The translations under genes were made by a program, and so were the position numbers. From sequence record OV876907: 64,000 nt of DNA; one strand, 5' to 3'. The DNA comes from Escherichia phage UGJNEcP3. The notes below the pieces were generated by a model. It was given only the letters and a program-made list of their open reading frames with translations. It did no database searches and was not told the origin of the DNA. Of the stretch, positions 15,577 through 59,680 are shown piece after piece (position 1 is the first letter of the stretch; each line of letters begins with the position of its first letter).

Positions 15577-15681
15577 TTACTTTTTAAAGTGAGCTGCTAT
15601 TAAACCTATAGCTAGGCCTGTGGCCAGGCCTAGGATAATAGCAAAGATACAGAGTAACAAGAACTCGACTCCAAGGCTCAT
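15577..15681 (-). CDS. 34-aa hydrophobic micro-protein coupled to gene 52
   Basis: ATG overlaps gene 52 stop (ATGA); MSLGVEFLLLCIFAIILGLATGLAIGLIAAHFKK is one TM helix. Confidence 0.45.
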   Translation of the reverse strand: MSLGVEFLLLCIFAIILGLATGLAIGLIAAHFKK

Positions 15682-17057
15682 AGAGACTCCAAATCTTTAA
15701 CATACTCAGTTACAACATCAGTGGTTTTCCAATATTGATGCTCTTCTTTCTTAGCCTTGGCTTCGAGGGCCAGTTTCTTGGCTTCGTCAGAAGTGATATG
15801 GAAAATGTTCATGGCCACTAGTTTATCGGCATATTCGCCATAGACTTTATTACCGGTCAATTCTTCGGTTAAAACCTTACGGGTCTTACCTTGGATAACC
15901 ACTACACCATCAATAACATCTTTGATAAATGTGGCTTTAGCCAATGCTAGTTTGAAAGCTTCTTCGGTTTCGATGATTTTACCATCAATACGTTTTTGTA
16001 CAAAGGTCTTACGGACCTCAACGAAATCACGAATCAGTTCAACTACATCTTCGTAAACCTTAAGTTTACCTTTTTCATTAATGACGGTCAGGTTTTGTGA
16101 ACGACGTTCGATTAACCCGAAGTCCTTCATGAGTTTTTCGTGTTTCTTATCTTCATCGGTAGGCAATTCATATTCTTTACGAATCTTAACCTTGAAGCCA
16201 AAACCGTTCTCGTCACAGTCATCATCATATGTGATGTACCCTTTGTCTTCCAGAGGGTCTAATACCTTAGCCACATATGTTTCACGGTCATATTTGTATG
16301 GGATTTCCGTGATATGCATTTGGGTTCGAGATGTGAACTTATACGTTCCACGAATCTCATAACTACCTGGTTCAATTTCAACAACTTCACCTCGGAATTC
16401 AGGATAAGCCACTTTAGGCTTGGTTACTCGTTTTTCCTGAAGAACTTGCAATACAGCTTTCTTAACAGAATCAAAACTATGAGGAAGAATATTAGTTGCA
16501 TAACCAGTTGCAATACCGGAAATACCATTAAGAAGAACAGTAGGAATAATAGGCAGATAAAAAGCCGGTGGCTTATGTTCGACATCCGCATGAACCGGAG
16601 CATATTCTGTGTCCTTATAAACTTTTGCAAAGTTACTTCCGATACGAGCAAAAATATAACGAGAGGCTGCAGCCTTTTGAACCAATCGAGAACCGAAGTT
16701 ACCTTGACCGTCTAACAATGGATAGTTGTTGTTCCATGTGTTAGCCATCAAAGCCCCTGCTTCCTGAGCAGAACCTTCACCATGGTGATATCCAAGGTCG
16801 GCTACGCCACCAGCAATAGAAGCTAGTTTGTGGAATTTTTCTTTATTACCACGAGCCATATCAAGACAACGAGCAACTACAAAACGTTGTACAGGTTTAA
16901 AGCCGTCAATCATATTTGGAATGGCTCGGTTTTCGACAGTATACATTGCATAAGCCAATGCTTCGTTGTCGATAATACTTTTTAAGTCACGACGAGTGAA
17001 AGAATCATCGTAAACATCTAAAGCCTGTTTAAAAAGGGTATCAATTACATCAGCCAT
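15678..17057 (-). CDS. 52: DNA topoisomerase II medium subunit gp52
   Basis: 459 aa; GyrA-type N-terminus (AMYTVENRAIPNMIDGFKPVQR), T4 gp52 size and position. Confidence 0.9.
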   Translation of the reverse strand: MADVIDTLFKQALDVYDDSFTRRDLKSIIDNEALAYAMYTVENRAIPNMIDGFKPVQRFVVARCLDMARGNKEKFHKLASIAGGVADLGYHHGEGSAQEAGALMANTWNNNYPLLDGQGNFGSRLVQKAAASRYIFARIGSNFAKVYKDTEYAPVHADVEHKPPAFYLPIIPTVLLNGISGIATGYATNILPHSFDSVKKAVLQVLQEKRVTKPKVAYPEFRGEVVEIEPGSYEIRGTYKFTSRTQMHITEIPYKYDRETYVAKVLDPLEDKGYITYDDDCDENGFGFKVKIRKEYELPTDEDKKHEKLMKDFGLIERRSQNLTVINEKGKLKVYEDVVELIRDFVEVRKTFVQKRIDGKIIETEEAFKLALAKATFIKDVIDGVVVIQGKTRKVLTEELTGNKVYGEYADKLVAMNIFHITSDEAKKLALEAKAKKEEHQYWKTTDVVTEYVKDLESL

Positions 17058-17061
17058 AATT

Positions 17062-17202
17062 TTACCATACTAGTGAATGAATAGCCATAATAACATCGGA
17101 AATAAAAAGCACAACTTGGATAAGTCCGAACATTACTCCATAATACAGTGCTACTAATAAAGCAGCAAGGGCTACTGAGTAGCCCAAGATTTTCTTAATC
17201 AT
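17062..17202 (-). CDS. 46-aa membrane micro-protein (52.1 position)
   Basis: ATG 17200-17202 overlapping ac-like stop; hydrophobic. Confidence 0.45.
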   Translation of the reverse strand: MIKKILGYSVALAALLVALYYGVMFGLIQVVLFISDVIMAIHSLVW

Positions 17203-17356
17203 TTTTAATCATCTTAAGTAAACCGACAGAAGTAGAAAGAACCCAGCCAATAAACAGAAAACTTAAGAATACCGGACCAGGGGCCCACACACCTAAAAAG
17301 AAGCAAACTGAACAGACTATAGCCATAATAAGTTCAATAAAAACTAGGATAACCAT
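17195..17356 (-). CDS. ac: Ac-like 53-aa membrane protein
   Basis: ATG 17354-17356 with GAGGA SD; two hydrophobic segments; position between stp and 52 as T4 ac. Confidence 0.5.
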   Translation of the reverse strand: MVILVFIELIMAIVCSVCFFLGVWAPGPVFLSFLFIGWVLSTSVGLLKMIKND

Positions 17357-17366
17357 ATTTTCCTCA

Positions 17367-17444
17367 TTAGCGTCCGAAGACGCCTTTAGTTTTAAGATTG
17401 TTACGATAGAACTGCATCACATGCTCGTTATGGAAATTACTCAT
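17367..17444 (-). CDS. stp: Stp peptide (25 aa)
   Basis: ATG overlaps ndd stop (TAATG); [25 protein letters not shown] matches T4 Stp as recalled. Confidence 0.75.
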
Positions 17445-17893
17445 TAGTATGCCTGCAGAATGAATTTAAAGTTATCAGCCAACATGCGGTTCATTTCTTC
17501 CAGTGTCTGGAGGTCGGAACTATGATTGCGGGTGAAAGCCATTGCAATTTGACCCTTACCAAAACCGGTGGTCAGAGGTTTCATCTTAGAAGCTGGTACA
17601 TAAAGAACTTCATACACAACACCGTTCACTGCCATGGTGCGAGCTGATTGAGAACGTTTCTTACGAATGTTAGCCACGATGCCATCAAGACCTTGGGCCG
17701 AACGTTGATTACCGACATAAAAACGAGCAGCTACGACACGAGAATCAGCTCCACCTTTAACAAAGAAGTAGAAGCCTGGCTGAGCAGAGATTTCTTTAGA
17801 AGGTTTACCATTTTGGTATTCACCGTTCTTAACATAAGCAACAGTAGTAGCACCAGCAGACAGAACGTTACGGCGAGTCATATAAGTATTCAT
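17444..17893 (-). CDS. ndd: nucleoid disruption protein Ndd
   Basis: 149 aa; ...[10 protein letters not shown]...[25 protein letters not shown]...[20 protein letters not shown] matches T4 Ndd (memory). Confidence 0.9.
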
Positions 17894-17942
17894 ATCAATT
17901 TCCTCAGTAGATTAATGTTTTGTTATCCGGTCAACGAGAACC

Positions 17943-17971
17943 ATTATAACATGATTCTCGAGGTTGTAAAC
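17943..17971 (-). promoter_or_regulatory. early promoter for ndd
   Basis: GTTTAC(17966-17971), 17 bp, caTGtTATAAT; inverted repeat CGAGAA/TTCTCG flanks -10. Confidence 0.55.
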
Positions 17972-18315
17972 TATTTTTGTAGCTGTTCTAAAATAAATCC
18001 GCTCGTATAAAAAGAAGCATTATAAACCTTGTTCAGCGGGTTCAAAGCCTGTCCGTAAGTATCACGTAGTTCTTTGATAACATTTTCATAGCTTACATAA
18101 TAACCACTATGATAATACGGGTCCATACTCATACGAAATTTAATAAACCGATAAAATCCTGTTTCTGGGTCTTGAACGAAAACGAAATCGGCACCCATCA
18201 TAATTTTTGAATCTACGCCAGGAATCATACTTTGATTGAATGCCACCGATGCATCCTGAAGGCTGAGTTGTTTAAAGAACATTACCTTAGCATTACCAAA
18301 AAAGATTTTAGACAT
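17971..18315 (-). CDS. hypothetical protein (114 aa from internal ATG)
   Basis: ATG 18313-18315 with AAGGAAA SD after upstream stop; track ORF extends to 18339. Confidence 0.6.
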   Translation of the reverse strand: MSKIFFGNAKVMFFKQLSLQDASVAFNQSMIPGVDSKIMMGADFVFVQDPETGFYRFIKFRMSMDPYYHSGYYVSYENVIKELRDTYGQALNPLNKVYNASFYTSGFILEQLQK

Positions 18316-18325
18316 GATAATTTCC

Positions 18326-18538
18326 TTATTCAGCGTCAACAGAAATAGCCATCAGTTCATCAACAGTAAGACACTGTACACTAGGTCCTACACAAAAGCG
18401 CTTAGTTGAATCATAAAGGTCCGTGGCATTAACAGGTTGTAATTCGGTCCCAACTTGCAAAGGAGAAATGCGAATCAGTTGTTGACCGTTATGTAATACA
18501 AAGCTCTCGCCGACTACCACATCTTTAAAAAGTTTCAT
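18326..18538 (-). CDS. hypothetical protein (70 aa)
   Basis: start moved to MKLFKD ATG with GAGG SD overlapping the micro-ORF stop. Confidence 0.55.
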   Translation of the reverse strand: MKLFKDVVVGESFVLHNGQQLIRISPLQVGTELQPVNATDLYDSTKRFCVGPSVQCLTVDELMAISVDAE

Positions 18539-18548
18539 AATATTTTCC

Positions 18549-18659
18549 TCAGAAGTTAAAGAATACACGTACATGGTCAATCATAAAAACGATTGGGAAA
18601 ATGCTCAATACCATTAACAACACAAACATGTTCCAAATTGCTTTAAGTAAGTTTTTCAT
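18549..18659 (-). CDS. 36-aa hydrophobic micro-protein
   Basis: ATG 18657-18659 with GGAG SD just after an early promoter; MKNLLKAIWNMFVLLMVLSIFPIVFMIDHVRVFFNF. Confidence 0.45.
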   Translation of the reverse strand: MKNLLKAIWNMFVLLMVLSIFPIVFMIDHVRVFFNF

Positions 18660-18679
18660 AATCATCTCCATTAGTTGAT

Positions 18680-18716
18680 AGGTCTATAGTATCATGATTA
18701 ATGGAGATGTATACCG
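18680..18716 (-). promoter_or_regulatory. early promoter (GTATAC -35 variant)
   Basis: GTATAC, 17 bp, caTGaTACTAT, AGACCTATCAACTAA box. Confidence 0.55.
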
Positions 18717-18804
18717 ATTTATGCCAATTTCCACAACAATAAACTAAAACATACGCAAATCACTGGGATACAGGCCATCCAAATAAGGCACCACGTTTTG
18801 CTAC

Positions 18805-19071
18805 TCAAAACACCACCTCTTTTATCTCAATCAATCCCCTGTACAATGCAGTGCGGAGGTCATAAAGAATATCTATGCCGTCAACATTATCCAGTTTTCC
18901 ATCAATAAGCTTTTCTAAATCTTCCTTTGATGCGATTAAAGGACGGAGAAATTTACATTCAGAAAGAGATAACTCTGTAGTAACATCATCACCTTCACCT
19001 GACGCGTCATACATAGCGGCAACAACCATGCCTGTAACTTTGTGTTTAGCGTAATATAATTTGATATCCAT
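18805..19071 (-). CDS. hypothetical protein (88 aa)
   Basis: start at MDIKLYY ATG with GAGGAG SD; track N-extension is translated promoter. Confidence 0.6.
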   Translation of the reverse strand: MDIKLYYAKHKVTGMVVAAMYDASGEGDDVTTELSLSECKFLRPLIASKEDLEKLIDGKLDNVDGIDILYDLRTALYRGLIEIKEVVF

Positions 19072-19127
19072 TTTGTTCTCCTCATTAGTTGATAGGAAGA
19101 TAGTAACACCATCCATGGCATTATAAC

Positions 19128-19355
19128 TTAAGCAATGGAATGTTTTGGATGCTGTTTAGCCCAACCTACTAAAAATTCCCAATACTTTTCGATAGAACCG
19201 TAAAGATTAATTACCGTAGGAGTGGTAACTTCAGTCCAATCTTTTTGAACATTACCTGTTTTAATATTGGTAAGCTTGTGAAACACTTTACCGTTCTCAA
19301 ATTTATATTCTTCGATTTTACGATTGATTGCTTTAACAGAAGTAATAGAAGTCAT
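19128..19355 (-). CDS. hypothetical protein (75 aa)
   Basis: start at MTSITSV ATG with GAGAGGAAA SD; track N-extension is translated promoter. Confidence 0.6.
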   Translation of the reverse strand: MTSITSVKAINRKIEEYKFENGKVFHKLTNIKTGNVQKDWTEVTTPTVINLYGSIEKYWEFLVGWAKQHPKHSIA

Positions 19356-19369
19356 AATATTTTCCTCTC

Positions 19370-19408
19370 GTGTAGTTGATAGGAAGATAGTAACACCATC
19401 CATGGCGT
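19370..19408 (-). promoter_or_regulatory. early promoter
   Basis: GTTTAC(19400-19405), 18 bp, gTGtTACTAT, CTTCCTATCAACTAC box. Confidence 0.55.
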
Positions 19409-19431
19409 ATGTAAACACTTATTTTAAAAAA

Positions 19432-20013
19432 TTATAAGGCGAGATACCAGCCGTTGTAATTGCTCTTACGGACTAGCTTTGTGATGGCTTCTCTGTCGCC
19501 AGAGAACTTAGGAGTGAACAGGACGTCGCCTGCCTCATTTACTGAAGTGTCGAATATAATTATACAGTCTGCAACTTTATGATTCAAGAGCGGTCCCAGG
19601 TTAATCCCTGTTCCATAAGGGAAGTCACCGGAGTATCCTGTAGTACAGGAAATCCACTTAGAATCTGATTGATGGGTCTTGACCTCTACACGTAGTCCAC
19701 AATACATAGGATGAGCTAAAACATCCCATGCATAGGTATAAGGGTCGTCATGGTCTTCCAGACCACTGTTAACATATCCTTTCAACCAATCAGCCACCAT
19801 ATACTCGGCATACGTTGCAATGACACACCGAGTCAATACTTCTTTCTTATCTTGGGACGGGTCTTGGCTTAAGGAATACAGTACGGTATCCTTAATCTTA
19901 ACCTTCATTTCGCCTGTTAAATCAGATGTCTTCAGGGTAAATGTCGGCATCGCTGCCAATCGGAGTAGTCCCGGGTTCGTCTTCACCATAAATGCCTCGA
20001 ATATGAAGTTCAC
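19432..20013 (-). CDS. hypothetical protein at the denB position (start uncertain)
   Basis: 193-aa ORF; upstream part overlaps next ORF so true start is probably an internal ATG (19950 or 19908); DenB identity unverified. Confidence 0.45.
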   Translation of the reverse strand: MNFIFEAFMVKTNPGLLRLAAMPTFTLKTSDLTGEMKVKIKDTVLYSLSQDPSQDKKEVLTRCVIATYAEYMVADWLKGYVNSGLEDHDDPYTYAWDVLAHPMYCGLRVEVKTHQSDSKWISCTTGYSGDFPYGTGINLGPLLNHKVADCIIIFDTSVNEAGDVLFTPKFSGDREAITKLVRKSNYNGWYLAL

Positions 20014-20230: not shown

Positions 20231-20420
20231 CGAAATAAGAAATACGAACCTCTAAACAATGAGCATAAGCACCCATCGCGTCCAGTTGTGCAATCAGTAA
20301 CCCTTGTTGACGGATATCAAGAGTTTCAAAAACACTACCTTCAATAAAGGTTTCTAGTGCATTAATTTTAAGAACTAACTGGTCGTATTCTTCAACTACA
20401 CGCGCTTGAAAACCTAACAT
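20223..20420 (-). CDS. hypothetical protein (65 aa)
   Basis: GAGGAAA SD before ATG 20418-20420; UUCG hairpin at 20437-20452 upstream. Confidence 0.55.
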   Translation of the reverse strand: MLGFQARVVEEYDQLVLKINALETFIEGSVFETLDIRQQGLLIAQLDAMGAYAHCLEVRISYFGE

Positions 20421-36144: not shown

Positions 36145-36666
36145 TTAATAACCACGGTCCTGACGAGCAAAGTTCTCGGCATTTTTCAGATAATACAGTT
36201 TAAAGATTTCTTCTGCAGTAAGTCCAAGACCCTGGAACATATTCAGAACAAAGTGCAGAATATCAATCATTTCGAATTTAATTTCGAGTTGGTCTTCAGG
36301 AGACAACTCGTCGATACGACGATTACGGAATTCAGCATGCTGAGCTTTCCAAGGCTTCCACACACTAGAGGCTGCTTTTTCACCGTTGGACATACCGCCA
36401 AGAGAAGTCAGCAGTTCACGGAATTCATCGTCAATATAATCTTTCTGGTTGCGAAGCCAATCGACGACTTGACCTGCGGTAGCCAGTTCATCAGGATTAG
36501 AGTTGAATTCTGATTTTTCGGTAGCCAGGCGAACCTGTAAAGATTTCTGCATATCAAGCATAACTTGCAGAGGGTCTTTATCTTCATGAATCAGAGCATT
36601 AAAATAAGCTTCCTCAGCTTTATCAACACCAGAAATCAAACCACTACATTCGTTAAAAAATGCCAT
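36145..36666 (-). CDS. 56: dCTPase/dUTPase (MazG-like) gp56
   Basis: 173 aa; size, position (between soc and 61) and helical NTP-pyrophosphatase character. Confidence 0.8.
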   Translation of the reverse strand: MAFFNECSGLISGVDKAEEAYFNALIHEDKDPLQVMLDMQKSLQVRLATEKSEFNSNPDELATAGQVVDWLRNQKDYIDDEFRELLTSLGGMSNGEKAASSVWKPWKAQHAEFRNRRIDELSPEDQLEIKFEMIDILHFVLNMFQGLGLTAEEIFKLYYLKNAENFARQDRGY

Positions 36667-36670
36667 TATA

Positions 36671-37327
36671 TTATTTCCTATTAAAGTTTTCTATCATTCG
36701 TCGATAACAAATATCAGGATATCCATTATCAACAGCTATTTTATTAAATTTGGTGCGTTTAGGTTTATTATTGTAAACCCATAATTCATAAAGCATATCG
36801 TAACTATTCCATATTTCTCCACGCCTAGGATTTGGCAAACCATATCGAGGGGAATCTTTACCACTAAATCTTCCTTTTCTAGCTTTACTCATATTGGCCT
36901 TGGCTTCATCAGATATAATTTTATCTTTATGAGCCAGGCGCATTTTGGCTTTAGTTTCTTCAGGAGTTTTCATCCCTCTAATCCAGGAAGGTTTACCAAA
37001 CATCGGGTTATTTTTTCCCGAAAATGCTTTAGCGTTATTTTCTCTTAACGTGGCTATAGTTCTACTAGTTAATTTAACTCCTTTATTATATCTCATTAAA
37101 TTAACAGCATAATGTAGACCTTTTACTTCGGGATATATTTTTGTTAAAAGCCTATGAGCTACAAAGTGTTCTCTTGGCAATAAAGCAACTAAATTGTTTT
37201 TATCATCAGAACCATTCATACATCTAGGTATAACATGGTGTTCTTCCGTATAATACGATAAAGACCGCTTAGAACCTCTTAATTTTCCTTTAGATATTAA
37301 TTCCTGGTATATTTTTTCGTAATTCAT
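36671..37327 (-). CDS. HNH homing endonuclease with NUMOD3-like repeats
   Basis: 218 aa; HNH core EEHHVIPRCMNGSDDKNNLVALLPREHFVAH; repeated GKNNPMFGK / GKDSPRYG modules; between 56 and 61. Confidence 0.8.
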   Translation of the reverse strand: MNYEKIYQELISKGKLRGSKRSLSYYTEEHHVIPRCMNGSDDKNNLVALLPREHFVAHRLLTKIYPEVKGLHYAVNLMRYNKGVKLTSRTIATLRENNAKAFSGKNNPMFGKPSWIRGMKTPEETKAKMRLAHKDKIISDEAKANMSKARKGRFSGKDSPRYGLPNPRRGEIWNSYDMLYELWVYNNKPKRTKFNKIAVDNGYPDICYRRMIENFNRK

Positions 37328-37329
37328 GG

Positions 37330-37360
37330 GATAATTGTATCATTAATTTGTAAAGCAAGT
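37330..37360 (-). promoter_or_regulatory. possible MotA-dependent middle promoter for the HNH gene
   Basis: minus-sense TTGCTTTA MotA-box-like motif ~12 bp upstream of TACAAT. Confidence 0.4.
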
Positions 37361-37368
37361 TATAAATA
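37361..37368 (+). promoter_or_regulatory. late promoter TATAAATA for plus-strand small ORF
   Basis: exact TATAAATA 22 bp upstream of ATG 37390. Confidence 0.5.
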
Positions 37369-37389
37369 TTAATTTAACAGGAGGATAAC

Positions 37390-37590
37390 ATGGGCAGTAT
37401 TTTTTACCAAATCTGGAAATTGGCCGAAAAGAAAGACAAGAAAATGATGTTAGGTTTTCTTGCGCTAGACGTATTCCTTTGGAATCTTTTAGTAGTTCCT
37501 GTAGCCGCTAGCCAAGGGGTAATTTTACCAGCGGTTACAATGGAACACGTATTAAGCATAATTGGATTCTTTAGCGGAGTTCCTGTCTAA
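37390..37590 (+). CDS. small membrane protein (66 aa), opposite strand to neighbours
   Basis: AGGAGG SD 6 nt before ATG; hydrophobic segments; own late-promoter motif. Confidence 0.5.
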   Translation: MGSIFYQIWKLAEKKDKKMMLGFLALDVFLWNLLVVPVAASQGVILPAVTMEHVLSIIGFFSGVPV

Positions 37591-40302: not shown

Positions 40303-40323
40303 TTGAATCTCCTCGTTAGTTGA

Positions 40324-40363
40324 TAGGTCTATAGTATCACTACCATAGACCGTTGTAAACACT
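40324..40363 (-). promoter_or_regulatory. early promoter for sp
   Basis: GTTTAC(40355-40360), 18 bp, gTGaTACTAT, AGACCTATCAACTAACGAGGAG. Confidence 0.55.
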
Positions 40364-41337: not shown

Positions 41338-41342
41338 GTTGA

Positions 41343-41381
41343 TAGGTCTATAGTATCATGCCTATAGGAGATGTAAACCCT
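41343..41381 (-). promoter_or_regulatory. early promoter
   Basis: GTTTAC(41373-41378), 17 bp, caTGaTACTAT, AGACCTATCAACTTGGAG. Confidence 0.55.
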
Positions 41382-44404: not shown

Positions 44405-45298
44405 TTAAAGGACCACGTCCTCATAACTTGGCATTTCGTGCTCAGAATGGATATGGGCACCGAAATAAATGAATTCAGCTAGACCAGGATGGAATACTAA
44501 ACCAGGATTCTCGTGATAAATGATATGAGGTCTTGATTTCAGAATCTGATAATATTCAACCTTACTAGGTTTGAATTTAATAATCTCTACATCAGGACGA
44601 TAGTCTTCACGTTTAAATGAATCATTCGGGTCGGTGATATAAAGGCGAGAACCTTCAGCTGCAGCTTGGTCTACAACTCTTTCGAATTGATAACATTTAT
44701 CAGAGATACGGAATGGATGGAAAATACCATCAATTTTAATAGGCGCTAGACCTTCAGAGTAACGCTCAATTACTGCGGGATTAATTACCTTTTGGTCTAC
44801 AAAAATCTTATCAGAGGACGCACCTCGTGACACCAGGACGTCTTTCTGGCATTGATTCAGGACTGTAGTATAAATCGAACGTTCAACTGAGGACACGTCG
44901 GTATCAATAAACTCGTCGATATAATAACGAGGAACTTCAGGGTCCATTGTAATGTTAAAGTTGAATTGTACAGTCTGAGTGCCATCATAACCTGTGATAT
45001 CGGTTACTAATCCTGAGCAGTCATAGTATTCGATTAACGAATCAACAACGAACTCGTTTTCAGACCAAAAATGTTTACGAGTTTCATAAGCATTTTCTTT
45101 ATACCAAAGCGGTACAAAATTCAGTTCAGGAAATAATTCAATGCATTCTTTGATATCGCTCGAATTTCTAGGATAAGCCAGATAATCACCTGGGCAAGCA
45201 CGGTTTAAATGGAGTTGAAAATTACCGTCCTTAAGGACGGCATATTCACCTGTTTCGTAACTACGCATACTGAAAATAGGAACGATAAACAGACTCAT
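44405..45298 (-). CDS. hypothetical 297-aa protein in the beta-glucosyltransferase locus (candidate DNA sugar transferase)
   Basis: occupies T4 beta-gt position between uvsX and 42-like gene; sequence does not resemble T4 beta-gt; no motif recognised. Confidence 0.6.
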   Translation of the reverse strand: MSLFIVPIFSMRSYETGEYAVLKDGNFQLHLNRACPGDYLAYPRNSSDIKECIELFPELNFVPLWYKENAYETRKHFWSENEFVVDSLIEYYDCSGLVTDITGYDGTQTVQFNFNITMDPEVPRYYIDEFIDTDVSSVERSIYTTVLNQCQKDVLVSRGASSDKIFVDQKVINPAVIERYSEGLAPIKIDGIFHPFRISDKCYQFERVVDQAAAEGSRLYITDPNDSFKREDYRPDVEIIKFKPSKVEYYQILKSRPHIIYHENPGLVFHPGLAEFIYFGAHIHSEHEMPSYEDVVL

Positions 45299-45993
45299 TT
45301 CAGGAATCCTCGAACATAGTCAAAATCACGTTCAAATACATGTGCACTAACCATAGTATGGGAATACGTACCCAGACCAACACCACACTGTTCAGCAATA
45401 AAGGCCATCAGTTTACCCTGCAGATAGAAATCCAGCTGCATAACGATAGCACAGTTCTGTGAACGCATATGAGTGTGTGCATACAGACGTCCATCACGAA
45501 TATAATATGTCACCGAATCGGTACAAGGATATTCTAAGGATTCGTCAGAATCAAGGAGGGCTTGGTCTTGTTCTTGGAGAATCTGGAACACAACTCTTCT
45601 TGAGTTAGGCTTCTCTTTAAGCTCTTTAAGTAAGGCTGGGAGTTGGGCCACAATTCGAGGTCCATAGAAAGTGTTGAAGTTTGCAGGCAATACGTCACTT
45701 TTCGGCTTATCAATGAACTTAGCAACATTAGGGTATTCCTTAAATGCTTCGGCGGCGTCAGTACCACCGGAAATCATAAACTTCCAGAAAGATTCGGCAT
45801 AATCATAGTTGATACGATTAATACGAGGGTCGGTGAATTTATAGGTGCTTGCATCCAGAACTTCAACTGAAGCCGAACCAATTTCATAACAACGACCGAT
45901 ACGAGAATCAACTGCAAACTGTGGAGCTTCCAGGATTTCTTCGTTCATTTGTTTAAATGCATTTTCAAAACTAACAGCGGTAATGTGTTTCAT
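45295..45993 (-). CDS. 42: thymidylate-synthase-family pyrimidine hydroxymethylase (gene 42-like)
   Basis: 232 aa; SRR arginine motif, catalytic-Cys block YPCTDSVTYYIRD, MRSQN...LD with Asp at the gp42 cytosine-specificity position, C-terminal SAHVF. Confidence 0.65.
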   Translation of the reverse strand: MKHITAVSFENAFKQMNEEILEAPQFAVDSRIGRCYEIGSASVEVLDASTYKFTDPRINRINYDYAESFWKFMISGGTDAAEAFKEYPNVAKFIDKPKSDVLPANFNTFYGPRIVAQLPALLKELKEKPNSRRVVFQILQEQDQALLDSDESLEYPCTDSVTYYIRDGRLYAHTHMRSQNCAIVMQLDFYLQGKLMAFIAEQCGVGLGTYSHTMVSAHVFERDFDYVRGFLK

Positions 45994-46526
45994 TTATTCA
46001 CCTCATAATTAATGTATTCATTAAGACGTTTTAATTCTACCATATCGACGTTAAGCAAGTTATTATGGCCGTCGTGATTTAAGATTTTAAACACGTTTTC
46101 AAAACATGTTTCATATTGGCGGATAGTTAGGTTGAACTCATCTTTAGTCAGTTTAATGAGGTCATCTTCAAAGTCTTTATCCAACGGATTACGGGTTAAA
46201 ATAACCTCAATGATATTGAATTCTTTTTTGAAATCAATCCAATCTGCTAGTTCTACATAAGGGTCCATTTCACCACGAAGGAATCCCGAGTAAACAATAT
46301 TACTAGGATAACCACGGTCTAGGATGTAAACGAAATTAGGGTCTAAAAACTTATACAACGTCTCGACTAAAGCCTTGTCATTATCAGTTCCTAACGAAAT
46401 ACATTTACCATTAATCTTTTTAGGAAAATCAATAAGACGATATTTCTTATCAGATAAAAGGGTTTCGATTAAAGTAGACTTCCCGGAATTATCCGGGCCG
46501 TCTATAACAATGATTTTTGGATTCAT
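45990..46526 (-). CDS. P-loop nucleotide/nucleoside kinase
   Basis: 178 aa; Walker A IVIDGPDNSGKSTL at N-terminus (dNK/TMK-like); unlike T4 gp1. Confidence 0.65.
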   Translation of the reverse strand: MNPKIIVIDGPDNSGKSTLIETLLSDKKYRLIDFPKKINGKCISLGTDNDKALVETLYKFLDPNFVYILDRGYPSNIVYSGFLRGEMDPYVELADWIDFKKEFNIIEVILTRNPLDKDFEDDLIKLTKDEFNLTIRQYETCFENVFKILNHDGHNNLLNVDMVELKRLNEYINYEVNK

Positions 46527-46897
46527 GGATGATAGGCCTTATAACTATCAAGAGTTCCTTCGCGAACCATTTCTTTAAAGTGGTCAGGACGAATTGCTCG
46601 GTCATCGATGATAAAAGTATAACTCGGCTTGTGTGTAAGCAAATTGTGATATTTCAATCCAATTTTTTCAAGGTTCTTAACCAATGCAGGAACTACTTCA
46701 ACCAAGATTCGGCCTGGGCCGCATGAAGTCATACCACGGGCAGTGAACAATGTAATCTCATGACCTTCATCGTACAGCTTATTAATCATGGACACCATTT
46801 CGGTGTCCGGTTTAAAGTTTTCATAATCACGGTCATCTTGCCAGTGAGTAATGGTATTATCGATGTCAAAGCACAAATGCATTAAATTTTCTTCCAT
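46523..46897 (-). CDS. HAD-superfamily phosphatase
   Basis: 124 aa; motif I FDIDNTIT (DxDxT), motif II TARG. Confidence 0.65.
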   Translation of the reverse strand: MEENLMHLCFDIDNTITHWQDDRDYENFKPDTEMVSMINKLYDEGHEITLFTARGMTSCGPGRILVEVVPALVKNLEKIGLKYHNLLTHKPSYTFIIDDRAIRPDHFKEMVREGTLDSYKAYHP

Positions 46898-48555
46898 TGT
46901 TTGTGGAGTTCAGTAGAACCTGTAGGTTTATATTTTACACCAGTTTCCTGGTCAAGCAAAACCCACTTATCAGGGCATCGAGTGATAATTTGGGCCGTAA
47001 TAGGGTCACGAACTTCATCGACAAATTCACCTGTAATAAGCTTACGCTTACGAGGATGCCGCTTCAGCAGCACACTCAGTTGATATAGACCGTTGTAATA
47101 AGCGCCCAGAGCTTTCAGAGGGTTATTTTTAAAGTAACCTGCCAACGCCATCCAGATAACAGCAATCCAGAGCTTGTGCTTAAATGTACACATTGGAATA
47201 TCATCTAAAGGCATAACCTTTTCAATATCAACGAATACTCGAGTTCCATTACGAGTTAAGCCACCCCATAGAGGGTCAGAGTTAAATTTGTCATAACCAT
47301 CGATAGAATAAAGCACCTTAGCTTCATCATAAATCGCAGGGCCTTTAGAACTATTACCAAAATAACCGCGTGGGTCGATGATTTTAATATCACCTTCGTC
47401 CGACAGCATAATATTACTGTAGTGCGGGTCGCCGTGAATAAGTTGGTACGGTTCTTTATGTTCAGACAGAATTTCTAGTGCATGACGAAGAAGTTTTTCT
47501 GGGTCGCCTACCTTAAAGTCATTGACATGGGTAATGCCCTGTGGAGCAAAGCCTTCAATCAATCCAGCAATAGAAGCATTACGAATAAGGACCTTGTCCA
47601 ATACTTCTTTCTTAACATCGGAATACCATTGCTCATCGGATGGATTATCGATAGTTCCACCAAATGAACGTAATGCACTAATGACCTTATAAACCATGAG
47701 GACTTTAGTTTCTTTAGACATAAACCGATAGGCATCTGCCATGGTGCGACCAAAGATACGTTCCATTTTAATGAATTCACCTGGAGCAAAGTCTACAATG
47801 CTCGGAACAAATTCAGAATCAATAGAATTATACCAATTGATTTCTTTAGATTGGATTTCTTTACCTAATTCGTTGGTAGGTACTTTAATAGCCAGATTCT
47901 CAGTGAACTCTAATTTATTAAATTCACGGTTAATTTCAGAATCTTCATGGGCCTTAGCCAGTTTCAATTTGTCACCGACATCAACTACAAAGTCCAGCTT
48001 ACGTTCGGTCAAATGGACCATCGAATCTAGGTTATCAGCAAGGTCTTCGCCATAATTAGAACGGTTGAAGCCTGTCCAATTAGCCACCTGATACAAACCA
48101 ACCACACCACCGCCAGTACCAATTTCACGCAAGTACGGTTCTTCAAATGTAAAACGACAGTCAGTCCCGTAGGTATAGCAATAGTCGTTATCCCACTCAA
48201 CTTTATGACCCTCAGGAATGATGTCACACCAGTTAAACAAGACGTTATGGCCAATGATATCTTCAGCAATGCAATCGATAGCATGAGCTGAACCATTAGC
48301 CACATCTACGTTACGAATAGTGAATTTAGGCTTATCACTATTAATCATGTTAATGGATTTAATATAGCCTTTAACGAGGTCGTTAAATTTGCTGTGAATA
48401 ACCAGAATAATTTCATCTGATTGGTTACTATACAAATCATACAAATGTTTTAATACAGTATGTTGTTTGTAGTTAACCAATACCTTCGGGATTTCGTTAG
48501 TAATTGGATACAACCGTGAGCCAAGACCCGCGCCTAAAATAACAACCTTTTTCAT
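46882..48555 (-). CDS. bifunctional sugar-1-phosphate nucleotidyltransferase / APH-fold kinase
   Basis: 557 aa from ATG 48553-48555 (GAGGAA SD); N-terminal ILGAGLGSRLYPIT..PKVLV (RmlA/GlmU-type); C-terminal LIHGDPHYSNIML + IIDPRGYFG (APH/ChoK-type). Confidence 0.75.
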   Translation of the reverse strand: MKKVVILGAGLGSRLYPITNEIPKVLVNYKQHTVLKHLYDLYSNQSDEIILVIHSKFNDLVKGYIKSINMINSDKPKFTIRNVDVANGSAHAIDCIAEDIIGHNVLFNWCDIIPEGHKVEWDNDYCYTYGTDCRFTFEEPYLREIGTGGGVVGLYQVANWTGFNRSNYGEDLADNLDSMVHLTERKLDFVVDVGDKLKLAKAHEDSEINREFNKLEFTENLAIKVPTNELGKEIQSKEINWYNSIDSEFVPSIVDFAPGEFIKMERIFGRTMADAYRFMSKETKVLMVYKVISALRSFGGTIDNPSDEQWYSDVKKEVLDKVLIRNASIAGLIEGFAPQGITHVNDFKVGDPEKLLRHALEILSEHKEPYQLIHGDPHYSNIMLSDEGDIKIIDPRGYFGNSSKGPAIYDEAKVLYSIDGYDKFNSDPLWGGLTRNGTRVFVDIEKVMPLDDIPMCTFKHKLWIAVIWMALAGYFKNNPLKALGAYYNGLYQLSVLLKRHPRKRKLITGEFVDEVRDPITAQIITRCPDKWVLLDQETGVKYKPTGSTELHKQWKKI

Positions 48556-48615
48556 TATCTGTTCCTCAAGTGAATGTAGGTACATTATACACTATTTTTA
48601 ATAAATTGGTATTGC

Positions 48616-49116
48616 TTAAATCTTATCTTTACCGATTTCAATACACTGTTCTATTGCCGCCGGTACTTTGGTCTTGAGCTTATCGATTTGTTTCTTATAA
48701 TCACGAGCTTTACCGAAGCTCTCGGTTTCGAGCATTTCGTAATAACGAGCCTCGTGGATGGAAATCTGTAGATTGATATGGTTTACGCACATCGCATACA
48801 GTTTCTGCTTTTTGTACAAATCATCTTGGCGCTTCATTTCTGCCTGGTGTTTGGCTAGTACCGCTTCACGCTTAGACTCTTGTTCACGTTGGAATTCGAT
48901 TTCCCTTTGAGCATATTTTGCACAGTTATTACCACATTGATTATTAGCTCGGGTATACACAAGTCCAGAACCGGCACGGAATTTCATTTCGCCATCGAAT
49001 TGTTTCTGTTCAGCTGCGATACGAGCTTTACCAACTTCATCGGCTGAAACTGCATCACCATATTGGACCGCACAACCTGATAGGAGCATACTCATTGCGA
49101 TAATTAACTTTTTCAT
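48616..49116 (-). CDS. lipoprotein with coiled-coil-like body (166 aa)
   Basis: MKKLIIAMSMLLSGCAV signal + lipobox; charged helical remainder; GAGGA SD. Confidence 0.6.
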   Translation of the reverse strand: MKKLIIAMSMLLSGCAVQYGDAVSADEVGKARIAAEQKQFDGEMKFRAGSGLVYTRANNQCGNNCAKYAQREIEFQREQESKREAVLAKHQAEMKRQDDLYKKQKLYAMCVNHINLQISIHEARYYEMLETESFGKARDYKKQIDKLKTKVPAAIEQCIEIGKDKI

Positions 49117-49123: not shown

Positions 49124-49261
49124 TCAATTAAAACAGTTATACTTAATTTGTGCTATAAGAATAATCCATCCTATGATTAATGTCGGAATCATTGGCGGAA
49201 TTGCCACTGCCCAATAAACGGTAAAGGCAGCCATTATAAGAAATAAAATAATTATCTTCAT
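49124..49261 (-). CDS. 45-aa membrane micro-protein (imm.1-like)
   Basis: ATG overlaps imm-like stop (ATGA); hydrophobic MKIIILFLIMAAFTVYWAVAIPPMIPTLIIGWIILIAQ. Confidence 0.4.
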   Translation of the reverse strand: MKIIILFLIMAAFTVYWAVAIPPMIPTLIIGWIILIAQIKYNCFN

Positions 49262-49494
49262 TGTTTAACGATAATGATTTGTGCGGTTGATTTACGTTCA
49301 GCGACGATAGCCCAGATTAAAGCCACTACCCAACCAATCATCGTCCATCCTAACAGGAGATTAAGGAAGAAGATTCCGACATTGTTACGAGTGCCTCGCA
49401 GAAGAGCTAGAATCCATGGTAAGAAGTAAGCGATGAACATCATAACCAGAGAACCGAATCCTAAAACACCAGCACTAACGATTAAAGCTTCCAT
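49258..49494 (-). CDS. imm: Imm-like superinfection-immunity membrane protein
   Basis: 78 aa with two TM helices; directly downstream of gene 43 as T4 imm; early promoter upstream. Confidence 0.6.
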   Translation of the reverse strand: MEALIVSAGVLGFGSLVMMFIAYFLPWILALLRGTRNNVGIFFLNLLLGWTMIGWVVALIWAIVAERKSTAQIIIVKQ

Positions 49495-55220: not shown

Positions 55221-55244
55221 AATGTTTCCTTATCAAGACAAAAA

Positions 55245-55658: not shown

Positions 55659-55714
55659 AATATTTTCTCTCATTTGGTTGGTAAATGTATTATAAATCTA
55701 TATTTTAAAGCAAT

Positions 55715-55906
55715 TTAATCAAAGTACTCGTAGACAAACCATGCCGGATTTCTATTTGACATGATTTTATCATATTCTGACTTAAAAGCATTTCGGAGAT
55801 ATTCTTCAGTAACAAGATGCTCATCTCCAGAGAAGTTGTTAACTAAAACGTATCTCTTTATTTCTGGAAAGGCCAACAAATGCTGGCCTGTTATAAAATC
55901 ACTCAT
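55715..55906 (-). CDS. hypothetical protein (63 aa)
   Basis: early-strand ORF abutting the GIY-YIG gene. Confidence 0.5.
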   Translation of the reverse strand: MSDFITGQHLLAFPEIKRYVLVNNFSGDEHLVTEEYLRNAFKSEYDKIMSNRNPAWFVYEYFD

Positions 55907-56589
55907 TATGAAGCATCCTTTAATTTACAATTATCAAAGTGCCATCGTTTCATAATGTTGTTAGAGCCAATTTTATCACAATATGGGCACTTTACAGTTG
56001 GTCTGCTTTTAGCTTTTGCAGATTGTTTGCTTTTCATAGCCTGTTTTGCTTCGTCAGACCTAGAATTAAGGGCTATAGAAATTTTATCCCTTGTTTCTTG
56101 GCTATGAGTTTTTCCGAACATAGGGTTGTTCTCAGGCAAATATGTACCATTTCTTATATTACTCTGACGAATTTTTTCTATATGTTCTTTAGATTTATTT
56201 CTTAGCTCTAGGCATTTAGATTTCTTTCTAGTTTTAAAAAGGTTTTCATAAAATGAATACGGTCTATTTTTAGCAGCTATACTCTGTTTAAGTCTGGTTT
56301 CCTCTTTTATAAAAGGTGCGGCATTACCTCCTAAAGAAATATTATATGTAAGAGGGTTCTTTATAAATTCCTCATTGACTATAATTCTTTCCATTTGGAT
56401 AGCCTCTTCTCTGGTATCAAAATTATAAAGTATTTCCTTTCTATGATTTTCCAAACCATATTTTTTAATAGAAGCTTTAATATATAAACCAGAGCCCATA
56501 TACGAATCTTTAATATTTTCAGTACTATGTATCCCTACATAGTACTTATTATTAACTAAATTTATTATTTTGTAAACAAGATGTCTCAT
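55906..56589 (-). CDS. GIY-YIG homing endonuclease (Seg-like) with NUMOD3-like module
   Basis: 227 aa; VYKIINLVNNKYYVGIHS...YMGSG (GIY...YIG core); ENNPMFGKTHSQETRDKIS; C-terminal CPYC; between 45/rpbA and 46. Confidence 0.8.
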   Translation of the reverse strand: MRHLVYKIINLVNNKYYVGIHSTENIKDSYMGSGLYIKASIKKYGLENHRKEILYNFDTREEAIQMERIIVNEEFIKNPLTYNISLGGNAAPFIKEETRLKQSIAAKNRPYSFYENLFKTRKKSKCLELRNKSKEHIEKIRQSNIRNGTYLPENNPMFGKTHSQETRDKISIALNSRSDEAKQAMKSKQSAKAKSRPTVKCPYCDKIGSNNIMKRWHFDNCKLKDAS

Positions 56590-58271
56590 TATTCTAATAC
56601 TGTAAAGCGGCCAACCTTCTTCATTTGTAAATGTTGTCCATACGATTGTGGGTCATGGTCTTTGTGTGAAATTATAAAGACATTAGAATCTTCCAAAGAA
56701 TTTATAATATTTGATACACCTTTAATACCTTCTGCATCAAAACTTCCATCAAAGACCTCATCAAGAATAAGAGTAGATATATTAATGCCTGAAACCTTTG
56801 AAGCAATATCTCGCCAGGTAAATAACAGAGCCACATCTATTCTAGACTTTTCACCTTCACTAAATGAAGCATAACTAAAGTCTTCGCGTCCACGCGACTT
56901 AATCGTCTCATTGAACTCTTCGTCAAGAGAAAAACTATAATCCGCCTCTAACATCTTCAAATAAGAATTTATTTGCTTATTAAAGATAGGAATGTATTTC
57001 TTAATAATGGAACCTTTAATACCAGTGTCCTTCAACATTTCTGTCAGAATTCCACGGTGATATTTTTCCATTACCAATGACGATTTGGTAGAGACGATTT
57101 TATCAAGCTCTGCTTGAAGCGTGGCAATCTCTTCGGCATTACTTACGAACTCTGCAGCCGCTTGGTCAATTAATACTTTAACCTTTTTAGCTTTCTCGAC
57201 AGCAGTAATGGCTTGCTGCTTATGAGTAGCTATCTGAGATTTAATAGCCAGCGCTTTATTACGTTGCTCGGTTACTTGGTCTTTAATAAGTTTGAGCTCT
57301 TGGTACTGCTCATTAATCTTATCCAAAGATTTTTGAAGCTCAAAGTTCTTATCCTTAATTTTAGTAAGGATGTTCCCATGTTCTTCCAATCCTTGCATAC
57401 ATGTAGGGCAGTGACCACCTGTTTCGTATAACTTAACCACCTTTGTAAAGGTTGCCATATCATTTTTGATTGCAAACCCTTTATTACTCAGGTCACTCAT
57501 GGAGTCGCTAGGGTCATCATCTACGATAACATTGAGTAATTCATCAGTCAGGAATTCTATGCTCGCTTTCGCAGTCCTGGCTTCTTTAACGAGCTCATCA
57601 TACATTAATTGTAGTCGTGCCGCATTCTCGCCGGATAATTTACGCTGACGCTCTTCGTTGTCATTATAAATTTTAATTTGCTGGGTAATAGAATCCTGTT
57701 TAACGTCTATCACCTGGATTTGGCTATTAGTCTCACGAATCAAAGATTTGTTCAACTTATCCATATCCGCTAATACAGAAACCTCTAAAAGGTCTTCCAC
57801 CAGCTTTCGACGCGCTGGGGTTGACAAACCCATGAAGGGGGTATACCCTGCCGTGCCAAGAACGACAATCTGTTTGAAGCTTGCATAGGACATTCCGATA
57901 AGCTGTTCAAATTCTGCTTGGAAGTCTTTACTGCTGGCAGATTCATCAAGACGTTCACCGCCACAAGAGATTTCAAAAACGTTCGGTTTTTGTCCGCGTT
58001 TGATATAGTATTCTTTGCCATCGTATTCCATCCACAGTTCGACCAAAAGGTCTTTCTTGTTACTTGAGTTAATCAACTGCCCTTTCTTAACATCACGAAA
58101 AGGCTTACCGAACAGAGCAAATGTTACAGCTTCAAGGAATGTTGATTTCCCTGCACCATTTTTACCAGTGACTAAGGTCTTTTGGACCTTATCAAGTTGG
58201 ATTGTAATGGGCTGCTGCCCGACCGACATAATATTTTTATACGTTACTTTCTTTAACTTAAAAGTCTTCAT
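56589..58271 (-). CDS. 46: recombination endonuclease subunit gp46 (Rad50/SbcC-like ATPase)
   Basis: 560 aa from MKTFKL ATG; Walker A GKNGAGKST, central coiled coil with CPTC hook, C-terminal LILDEVFDG. Confidence 0.9.
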   Translation of the reverse strand: MKTFKLKKVTYKNIMSVGQQPITIQLDKVQKTLVTGKNGAGKSTFLEAVTFALFGKPFRDVKKGQLINSSNKKDLLVELWMEYDGKEYYIKRGQKPNVFEISCGGERLDESASSKDFQAEFEQLIGMSYASFKQIVVLGTAGYTPFMGLSTPARRKLVEDLLEVSVLADMDKLNKSLIRETNSQIQVIDVKQDSITQQIKIYNDNEERQRKLSGENAARLQLMYDELVKEARTAKASIEFLTDELLNVIVDDDPSDSMSDLSNKGFAIKNDMATFTKVVKLYETGGHCPTCMQGLEEHGNILTKIKDKNFELQKSLDKINEQYQELKLIKDQVTEQRNKALAIKSQIATHKQQAITAVEKAKKVKVLIDQAAAEFVSNAEEIATLQAELDKIVSTKSSLVMEKYHRGILTEMLKDTGIKGSIIKKYIPIFNKQINSYLKMLEADYSFSLDEEFNETIKSRGREDFSYASFSEGEKSRIDVALLFTWRDIASKVSGINISTLILDEVFDGSFDAEGIKGVSNIINSLEDSNVFIISHKDHDPQSYGQHLQMKKVGRFTVLE

Positions 58272-58521
58272 CGTTATAAGCATCCTTGATGCATGATTCA
58301 GCCATATGAATTAATGTTTCTGGAGTATCATCTACCATTACATTAAAGCTAAATTCTACAGCCCAATCGGTAGCAACATAAACTTTAATAAGCTCGCCGG
58401 TATCACGAGTGCTCACGGCTTCAAACCAGAACTTAATTGTACTAGGTTGACCATCATCATCAATAACTATACAGTCGTGTTCCAGTTCAAGTCCCGATTT
58501 TTTGAATTCATCTAAAGTCAT
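58258..58521 (-). CDS. hypothetical protein (46.1 position)
   Basis: 87 aa between 47 and 46. Confidence 0.55.
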   Translation of the reverse strand: MTLDEFKKSGLELEHDCIVIDDDGQPSTIKFWFEAVSTRDTGELIKVYVATDWAVEFSFNVMVDDTPETLIHMAESCIKDAYNDEDF

Positions 58522-59540
58522 CGTGTAACCTCATTATAAAGTTGTGCAGCCATAGTCTTAAGGGCTTTAACATCGGCTTCAGTGTGGCCATCAGGAAGGG
58601 CATCGATATAATCATACATCATATCCAAGAGGGATTTAACTTCGTCTTCCTCTTCAGAATCATCAATATCAACACTATTATCTACCTTAGACACAATACG
58701 TAAAGAGTGAACAACCTTTTCAAGCTCTGATTCGAACTTAGTAAGACCGTCATCGATTTTATCGACTATAACACGAACTGCGATATTTGTAAAATCTTTG
58801 TAATCGATAGTCTCGTTAGGATAATGAATCTTACGATGCCAACAGGTTTCATTAATGATGAAATCCATTTTATGAGTTTCGGTATCGAAAATCCAGAAAC
58901 CACGAGGGTCGTTCTCATCGCCTGCAGTAAGGGTCCATGGCGTACCAATGTACTTGACGTTTGCTGCATCAGAAATGGTGTGGAAGTGGCCAGACCATAC
59001 TTGCTTATACTTCTTAAGGAAATCAGGTTCTAAACCATGTGATTTCATTCCTTTATAGAAATAGAAACCATTTAATTCCCAGTGGCCAATACAGAAATCT
59101 GCCGTGGTATTTTTGATATGGTCCATGATATCAGTGGTGTTTTCTTCACACATCCATGGAATCAAATCAATTTCGGTGCCATCAAAGTTAACCGTAGTAG
59201 GTTTCTCAATAACCTTGATATGGTCATATTTACCCAGAACTTCAGAAGCTGCGTTCGGCGTCAGGGTATTTTTGTAGTGGGCATCATGGTTACCAACGAC
59301 CGTATACATGGTAATGCCACTTTCTTTAAGCAAATCAGAGATTTCGCGAGCGAATTCCATACACTTATGGGTAATTGCTTTACGAACGTCAAAGATATCA
59401 CCGTATTGAATCCACACGGTAATACCATTTGCTTTAGAATAATTGATAGCGTCTTGGATACCTTGACGTTGGATATTTTGTACCCACACATCATCGGCCT
59501 TCACTCCAAGGTGCCAGTCACCTGTGTTTAATATTTTCAT
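58518..59540 (-). CDS. 47: recombination nuclease subunit gp47 (Mre11/SbcD-like)
   Basis: 340 aa from MKILNTGDWH ATG; phosphoesterase motifs GDWHLG, GDIFD, GNHD, GHWE, GHFH. Confidence 0.9.
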   Translation of the reverse strand: MKILNTGDWHLGVKADDVWVQNIQRQGIQDAINYSKANGITVWIQYGDIFDVRKAITHKCMEFAREISDLLKESGITMYTVVGNHDAHYKNTLTPNAASEVLGKYDHIKVIEKPTTVNFDGTEIDLIPWMCEENTTDIMDHIKNTTADFCIGHWELNGFYFYKGMKSHGLEPDFLKKYKQVWSGHFHTISDAANVKYIGTPWTLTAGDENDPRGFWIFDTETHKMDFIINETCWHRKIHYPNETIDYKDFTNIAVRVIVDKIDDGLTKFESELEKVVHSLRIVSKVDNSVDIDDSEEEDEVKSLLDMMYDYIDALPDGHTEADVKALKTMAAQLYNEVTR

Positions 59541-59680
59541 AAGCCGAGCACCGTTATCGCAATGCAAAATAAAATTATTGAGATGAACCCATCAGGAGTA
59601 GAAAAGAATCCTATCCAACAGGCTCGTGTGAATGTGTAGAATGCCATGAATAACACGACATATCCTAAAAGTAATTCCAT
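59537..59680 (-). CDS. 47-aa membrane micro-protein coupled to gene 47
   Basis: GAGGAG SD; MELLLGYVVLFMAFYTFTRACWIGFFSTPDGFISIILFCIAITVLGL; stop overlaps gene 47 ATG (ATGA). Confidence 0.45.
   Translation of the reverse strand: MELLLGYVVLFMAFYTFTRACWIGFFSTPDGFISIILFCIAITVLGL

Follow-up and report, generated by a model that had tools for sequence, protein, structure and literature searches.

Four tiny hydrophobic genes of Escherichia phage UGJNEcP3 and their probable role at the host inner membrane

A 64,000-nucleotide (nt) stretch of Escherichia phage UGJNEcP3 (OV876907), hereafter the window, carries four open reading frames (ORFs) for hydrophobic micro-proteins of 34-47 amino acids (aa), located at gene 52, behind an early promoter, at imm and at gene 47. 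We find that all four are protein-coding, beyond chance as judged by their frame-specific conservation, and that they belong to families already catalogued in other phages. We consider it likely that they are genuine T-even genes for tiny early inner-membrane proteins, which act as peptides in an accessory envelope or host-takeover role and not as regulators of the adjacent genes. An earlier note on this DNA had listed these frames, and each was recovered as an ATG-initiated ORF at exactly the positions it gave, on the minus strand ("upstream" thus denotes higher coordinates throughout):

15577-15681, minus strand: ORF1, 34 aa, translation MSLGVEFLLLCIFAIILGLATGLAIGLIAAHFKK
18549-18659, minus strand: ORF2, 36 aa, translation MKNLLKAIWNMFVLLMVLSIFPIVFMIDHVRVFFNF
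49124-49261, minus strand: ORF3, 45 aa, translation MKIIILFLIMAAFTVYWAVAIPPMIPTLIIGWIILIAQIKYNCFN
59537-59680, minus strand: ORF4, 47 aa, translation MELLLGYVVLFMAFYTFTRACWIGFFSTPDGFISIILFCIAITVLGL

Coding signal of the four ORFs

The four products have a grand average of hydropathy (GRAVY) of 1.4-1.8, and the hydropathy profiles bear out the single or double hydrophobic stretches that had been read from the sequence, with one each in ORF1 and ORF2 and two each in ORF3 and ORF4, where they are separated by IPPMIP and TRACWIGFFSTPDG, respectively. A search of the six frames of the window for ATG-initiated ORFs of 30-60 aa with a GRAVY of at least 1.4 returned 13 instances, against 0.8 ± 1.0 in block shuffles. 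Length and hydrophobicity are nevertheless not decisive alone, because seven of these 13 fall within larger genes or on the strand opposite to them; the other six occupy otherwise free coding-strand stretches and comprise the four flagged ORFs, a homolog of T4 52.1 and an ac-like ORF. We fetched 45 loci from relatives across the four ORF families and measured selection by the ratio of nonsynonymous to synonymous substitution rates (dN/dS) and the synonymous excess in the annotated frame relative to the two shifted frames. In all four families the excess appears in the annotated frame only (p = 1e-3 to 3e-6), and since it is confined to that frame, we conclude that the four ORFs are protein-coding genes. 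All 45 loci are free of frameshifts and stop codons: the conservation of the reading frames in close relatives, on which the earlier note had staked its proposal, holds in every relative examined, with a dN/dS of about 0.04-0.3.

All four ORFs match PHROG families at E <1e-20, namely phrog_16377, 3098, 3610 and 6693, which are families of unknown function; in Pfam, none of the four has a match. The idea that none of them is annotatable does not stand, as ORF1 and ORF2 are already coding sequences in record OV877765.1 (CAH1616863.1 and CAH1616869.1, respectively), and ORF3 and ORF4 are annotated in relatives. These are, then, known and catalogued genes, and ORF4 and ORF2 carry names in T4 (47.1 and ndd.4). 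A time-resolved omics study of T4 places 47.1, ndd.4, motA.1 and 52.1 in its early transcript class and lists their proteins as NA, that is, undetected by shotgun proteomics (PMC9697503, Table S2). The claim that the micro-proteins are expressed is accordingly upheld indirectly, by purifying selection and by the early-transcript class of the T4 genes, and goes without backing from the T4 proteomics; a literature search found no Ribo-seq study of T4.

The window is 100% identical to OV877765.1 (Escherichia phage UGJNEcP4, a JS98/JS10-like T-even phage of Dhakavirus), in which it corresponds to positions 151102-170590 followed by 128-44638. That record begins and ends with the same 127 bases, an overlap left by the assembly of a circularly permuted genome, and the window reads across this junction (19363-19489). 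From about 13.1 kb to the window end, all annotated genes but one are transcribed on the minus strand.

Families and the proposed membrane role

Below, the strength of a Shine-Dalgarno (SD) sequence is the energy of its duplex with the anti-SD in kcal/mol, ranked over 95 genes; the gene median is -6.0 and the median of random positions is -1.9. ORF4 is gene 47.1, annotated under that name in JS98, JS10 and T4. It is 80% identical over its full length to T4 gp47.1 (NP_813808), matches phrog_6693 at E = 1.1e-30 and has tblastn matches in 602 phage records. The T4 version was deposited as early as 1985 as "orf E", together with a ribosome-binding site (GenBank X01804). The two hydrophobic segments of the protein are arranged around FTRACWIGFFSTPDGFISIILFCI, which is invariant between T4 and this phage. 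The gene is intact in 13 of 13 loci, T4-type sequences among them, with an aa identity of 78-100% to the window ORF, and every locus keeps both its SD and the ATGA by which its TGA overlaps the ATG of gene 47; dN/dS is 0.04-0.20 and the frame-specific p reaches down to 3e-6.

ORF2, with a single transmembrane-like stretch in its 36 aa, is 61% identical to T4 Ndd.4 (NP_049884), matches phrog_3098 at E = 3.6e-21 and has counterparts in 596 records. Like T4 Ndd.4, it is an early-region gene flanked by denB and ndd, with an early promoter ahead and a stop that overlaps the SD of the next gene; the downstream gene itself differs between the two phages. The promoter, whose proximity had been noted before, is recognizable by a repeated 22-nt core:

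18675-18696, minus strand: early-promoter core CATGATACTATAGACCTATCAA, directly upstream of ORF2

This core occurs in four copies against zero expected, the others being at 15498-15519, 40320-40341 and 41339-41360 (all minus strand). The ndd.4 frame is intact in 15 of 15 loci (dN/dS 0.09-0.31), and these retain the MK(K/N) start together with the GGAG SD (-6.4 kcal/mol in ORF2), while a longer N-terminal extension is not kept. In T4, the annotated start (MEEQKMKK) is unconserved and has an SD of +0.9 kcal/mol, as opposed to -9.3 for the internal MKK, which is kept in all relatives and is the start of ORF2; from these sequences, the T4 ndd.4 annotation is probably five codons too long. Within the most conserved ndd.4 codons (LSIFPIVFMID) there is also a sigma-70-like site, TTGAGC-17-TATGAT (18580-18608, minus strand), and in T4 the middle promoter Pndd.3 has its start at 166702, inside ndd.4 (166636-166764; PMC2988021); these codons of ORF2 may be constrained as protein sequence and as promoter alike. 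The junction that follows ndd.4, TGAGGA(A/T)AAT(ATT)ATG (window 18538-18551), is kept in 15 of 15 relatives, and the gene behind it has at least five unrelated N-termini, so ndd.4 seems, from the sequence comparison, to mark a fixed boundary of a gene-swapping region.

ORF1 occurs only in phages of Dhakavirus and of the VR5 type, where 53 of 54 records match at least 80% of the query at no less than 90% identity, and the five fetched loci are intact. In phage IME540 the ORF is intact, and its apparent truncation was produced by the low-complexity filter of tblastn. The protein is a single hydrophobic helix with KK at its end; its variable columns are distributed 5/0/10 over the three codon positions (dN/dS 0.06-0.20; p = 1e-3). 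The ATG overlaps the gene 52 stop as ATGA, and the SD that belongs to ORF1 (-5.9 kcal/mol) is inside the end of gene 52. T4 MotA.1 (NP_049874) is comparable in being a hydrophobic micro-ORF with an ATGA on the gene 52 stop just upstream of motA, and a Kanagawavirus displays the same layout at this stop; however, MotA.1 has 49 aa and belongs to phrog_3487, whereas ORF1 has 34 aa and belongs to phrog_16377. Homology of the two was considered and rejected (hhalign probability 2%), as ORF1 matches phrog_16377 only. Downstream of ORF1 follow:

15559-15578, minus strand: intrinsic-terminator hairpin, its stem beginning within the ORF1 stop codon
15509-15536, minus strand: motA early promoter, after this hairpin

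The promoter core and the adjoining hairpin at 15559-15578 match the promoter-terminator arrangement of the PeSL (promoter-early stem-loop) modules, for which a part in the shuffling of genes in T4-like phages has been proposed (PMC4122927). That paper on the PeSL motif is all that the literature returned for 47.1 and ndd.4, with no functional study of either.

ORF3 belongs to phrog_3610, the family of RB69 ORF054c (E = 1.4e-21). Phage C6 has an annotated copy (QVW28190.1), and genomes of Mosigvirus and Kanagawavirus carry it under the label RB69ORF054c-like. All 12 sequences of the family, from three genera and one contig, are intact at 45-47 aa and 42-100% identity, and a four-sequence alignment contains 20 invariant residues (among T.YW, P.MIPTL, W and Q.KY.CFN), with the motif T.YW..P.MIPT..W..Q.KY.CF. 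The synonymous excess of this family is frame-specific among the non-Dhakavirus members (p = 1e-4 to 3e-6), comparisons with the window sequence being saturated. Membership of the Imm family (PF14373) was also considered for ORF3 and dropped for want of a Pfam match.

The four genes would be initiated in different ways. Ribosomes would reach ORF1 through the SD that it possesses within the end of gene 52, at the ATGA overlap, and ORF3 most likely by terminating at the imm stop (ATGA) and reinitiating there; Ndd.4 would be translated as the leading cistron behind its early promoter; and 47.1 would depend on its very strong SD. Going by hydropathy, the products most likely insert early into the host inner membrane, where they would modulate an envelope or host-takeover function. 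Such a role would be accessory, like that of the neighboring Imm, Ac and Stp, as opposed to regulation of the adjacent replication and recombination genes. As the aa sequences are kept even where the neighboring genes have been exchanged, we hold that the products act as peptides and are not mere translated spacers; any host target of theirs is putative.

Bacterial small membrane-protein regulators include MgrB (47 aa) and AcrZ (49 aa). The phage products resemble regulators of this type (for context, PMC12648545) in their size, their one or two hydrophobic helices and their conserved short polar motifs, a likeness consistent with binding to a larger membrane protein; it is one of analogy only, since the four ORFs have no sequence relationship to them.

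Several points weigh against a purely peptide-based envelope role. Neither a Pfam family nor a solved structure offers a functional lead for any of the four. The absence of the T4 homologs from shotgun proteomics (Class_P = NA), although expected for such peptides, lends no support. For ORF1, given its restriction to Dhakavirus and VR5-type phages, the divergence available for testing is small (nine differences in the best pair). Lastly, the SD-less gene 47 and the invariant ATGA ahead of it suggest that 47.1 may have a cis role in translation too.

Possible coupling to gene 47 and gene 52

Tight overlap of the ATGA type is the norm for this genome and represents ordinary close packing of the T4 type: 31 of the 94 annotated minus-strand junctions overlap, and the 4-nt ATGA is the commonest type of overlap (14 of 94). 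The stop/start overlaps ascribed to the micro-ORFs are present as ATGA at gene 52/ORF1, imm/ORF3 and ORF4/gene 47. No TAATG is found among them in this phage, and ORF2 has no overlap, its TGA lying instead in the SD of the next gene (18326-18538; TGAGGA-N7-ATG, TGAGGAAAATATTATG). Similarly, of the plausible SDs claimed for each micro-ORF, those of ORF1, ORF2 and ORF4 (-9.2 kcal/mol, 5th percentile of the 95 genes) are real, and that of ORF3 is not: at +1.2 kcal/mol, it is the weakest of all window genes. The features that bear on coupling are:

58518-59540, minus strand: gene 47 (SbcD/Mre11-like nuclease subunit), without a usable SD
59701-59724, minus strand: predicted middle promoter, with a MotA-box-like TGCTTTA (59718-59724), a spacing of 11 nt and TAAAAT (59701-59706)
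59727-59746, minus strand: terminator hairpin upstream of 47.1
15678-17057, minus strand: gene 52 (topoisomerase II medium subunit), weak SD (-2.8 kcal/mol)
17062-17202, minus strand: unannotated homolog of T4 52.1, absent from the earlier note's list, 46 aa, hydrophobic, MIKKILGYSVALAALLVALYYGVMFGLIQVVLFISDVIMAIHSLVW
17195-17356, minus strand: ac-like ORF at the position of T4 ac, 53 aa, hydrophobic, annotated as hypothetical, SD -6.3 kcal/mol

That the micro-ORFs might control downstream translation fits only 47.1 and gene 47, where a strong SD, a gene without one and an invariant ATGA come together. The suggestion fails by gene order for ORF1 and ORF3 and is superfluous for ORF2. ORF1 and ORF3 are downstream of gene 52 and imm and receive ribosomes from them, so they cannot control these genes. 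Beyond its own stop, ORF1 is followed by the terminator. ORF2 and ORF3 do end within the next initiation region, though loosely, with the stop in the next SD instead of an ATGA as in ORF4, and the genes that they precede are each equipped with a normal SD (-6.1 and -6.0 kcal/mol, respectively); among the downstream genes, it is gene 47 that has no ribosome-binding site of its own.

These features raise the alternative that 47.1 is a leader cistron, which delivers ribosomes to the SD-less gene 47 by way of the ATGA, and that the ac-like ORF and 52.1 act in series likewise for gene 52. Micro-ORFs of this kind would set the amounts of recombination and topoisomerase subunits made from early transcripts, and a peptide function could coexist with this. 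We judge this alternative unlikely, even with the initiation signals in its favor: in this phage and all 13 relatives, the SD of gene 47 is between -3.0 and -1.7 kcal/mol, near the random median, behind the strong SD of 47.1 and the invariant ATGA. At gene 52, the series runs from the ac-like ORF, which heads it with a normal SD, through 52.1 and gene 52 to ORF1, each overlapped or closely apposed to the next. The 52.1 homolog has no SD; it shares 8 nt with the 53-aa ORF (ATGATTAA), and 4 nt separate its end from the ATG of the weakly initiating gene 52. The same pattern is seen in T4. This makes the 52.1 homolog a better candidate than ORF1 for coupling to gene 52. A further point in favor is the predicted MotA-box promoter, derived from the published consensus (PMC2988021), which lies upstream of the 47.1 SD and would make 47.1 a first cistron.

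Against it stand the mapped middle-promoter starts of T4, where P47 (36576) lies inside 47.1 (36444-36584) and P52 (165227) inside 52.1 (165209-165349), as does Pndd.3 inside ndd.4 (PMC2988021). Because these starts are internal to the micro-ORFs, T4 genes 47, 52 and ndd.3 are also made from mRNA that is unable to encode the peptides, and coupling of 47.1 to gene 47 is not obligatory. A strict form of the idea, in which the downstream genes are expressed only from mRNA that includes the leader ORF, is rejected on the same T4 starts, as judged through the homologs. Strong purifying selection on the peptides is likewise unneeded for pure ribosome delivery. The start of gene 47 is not covered by any conserved RNA structure: a sequestering hairpin was sought at the 47.1/47 junction, and the consensus fold has -5.6 kcal/mol and no covarying pairs. 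Finally, the model is inapplicable to ORF1, in view of the terminator behind it, and unnecessary for the normally initiating genes after ORF2 and ORF3.

A combined version, in which 47.1 and similarly the ac-like ORF and 52.1 have a dual role, as membrane peptides and as the sole ribosome route to the essential, SD-less gene 47 or weak-SD gene 52 on early read-through transcripts, strikes us as quite improbable. The window resembles T4 in the position of 47.1, the 4-nt ATGA overlap on gene 47 and the terminator hairpin ahead, but differs in that the mapped P47 start of T4 is inside 47.1, whereas the MotA-type promoter predicted here is upstream of the 47.1 SD. Judging by this placement, a middle transcript of this phage may begin with 47.1 as its first cistron.

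Between the ac-like gene and ndd there is, in addition, an unannotated 25-aa ORF (17367-17444, minus strand) at the position occupied in JS10 and T4 by stp, the activator of the host PrrC anticodon nuclease; it is a candidate by position only.

ORF3 at the arabinosylation cluster, and the wider picture

ORF3 is embedded in a different setting from the other three, defined by the following neighbors:

49258-49494, minus strand: imm (PF14373 match at 2.6e-18), its stop overlapping the ORF3 start as ATGA
48616-49116, minus strand: predicted lipoprotein of 166 aa (phrog_1754), its SD (-6.0 kcal/mol) overlapping the ORF3 stop (TGAGGA)
44405-49116, minus strand: Afh-type cytosine-arabinosylation cluster, downstream of ORF3

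The micro-ORFs had been described as coupled to essential genes, which does not apply here: imm is not essential, as is generally known from T4 genetics. Between imm and gene 42, T4 has no equivalent of ORF3. The lipoprotein gene after ORF3 is followed by an AfhE-type nucleotidyltransferase/kinase (46882-48555), a HAD phosphatase, a kinase-like gene, a thymidylate-synthase-family gene, a 297-aa ORF and uvsX. The 297-aa ORF (44405-45298) has no Pfam match and sits at the position of the RB69/DLP3 arabinosyltransferase (PMC13326640). Published work on RB69, DLP3 and HY126, a Dhakavirus, describes this cytosine-arabinosylation cluster (PMC6024577, PMC13326640). The window has no arabinose-5-phosphate isomerase gene at the position that it takes in Mosigvirus, Kanagawavirus and Ac42; imm, ORF3 and the lipoprotein gene are found there instead.

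This neighborhood suggests a second alternative, which we regard as very unlikely: the arabinosyl-5-hydroxycytosine DNA-modification pathway encoded by the Afh cluster would include ORF3 as a membrane component. Homologs of ORF3 always lie between gene 43 and an AfhE-type sugar-activating gene with their start on the upstream stop, as ORF3 itself does, and this holds whether the upstream gene is imm or the isomerase gene. In Mosigvirus and Kanagawavirus, the homolog is coupled directly to the isomerase gene by ATGA or TAATG, with AfhE next and the lipoprotein homolog further upstream, and among Escherichia, Shigella and Enterobacter phages the record counts of ORF3 and AfhE-type genes are nearly equal. 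The enzymes of the pathway are, however, cytoplasmic, and its published tables leave out the small ORF (PMC13326640). Moreover, upstream of the AfhE gene in Klebsiella Marfavirus AmPh_EK29 and Acinetobacter phage Ac42, an ORF3-like gene either has no space or is not annotated. ORF3 is thus rejected as an obligatory part of the pathway, and because AfhE clusters occur without it, we view it as an accessory neighbor of the Afh cluster. The Dhakavirus arrangement also departs from that of RB69 ORF054c, Shf125875 gp051 and PEi20 ORF-048, which share with ORF3 the 20 invariant residues, the length of 45-47 aa and the start on the upstream stop: in Dhakavirus, the partner is imm and not the isomerase gene, and the lipoprotein gene is inserted before the AfhE-type gene. 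This coupling of ORF3 to imm and the lipoprotein gene points to an envelope role, and our guess is that ORF3 acts at the envelope beside Imm and the lipoprotein; that it forms an uncharacterized envelope module with them is a separate and quite improbable reading.

The weakest alternative, in which the four frames are open by accident or owe their conservation solely to signals in the DNA or RNA (promoters, terminators or recombination junctions), could draw on the seven comparable ORFs inside or antisense to larger genes, on the T4 promoters inside 47.1, 52.1 and ndd.4 and on the sigma-70-like site inside ORF2, but retains next to no probability and is effectively refuted by the codon-position analysis, with substitutions concentrated at third codon positions and the synonymous excess restricted to the annotated frame in four families, as well as by frames undisrupted in all relative loci and by lengths and start sites kept across genera.

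Elsewhere in the window, a 613-nt stretch just upstream of the DNA primase gene (36974-37586) has no annotated minus-strand gene, and its only minus-strand ORF is of 51 aa and non-hydrophobic; OV877765.1 annotates a 66-aa plus-strand coding sequence within this stretch, at about 37390-37590.

Taken as tiny early inner-membrane proteins, the four micro-ORFs correct the record: they are not overlooked oddities, but part of a long-known and functionally uncharacterized set of T-even membrane proteins. ORF3, 47.1, the 52.1 homolog and the candidate stp counterpart are absent from the annotation of OV877765.1. The invariance of FTRACWIGFFSTPDGFISIILFCI makes 47.1 a good candidate for a specific interaction at the host membrane. 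At the same time, an SD-less gene 47 behind a strongly initiating 47.1 furnishes a testable hypothesis on the early expression of gp47 and gp46. If the dual role proposed for 47.1 and the ac-like/52.1 pair were true, the early synthesis of the recombination nuclease and of the topoisomerase would be gated, and possibly located at the membrane, by the co-translational insertion of a hydrophobic leader peptide.

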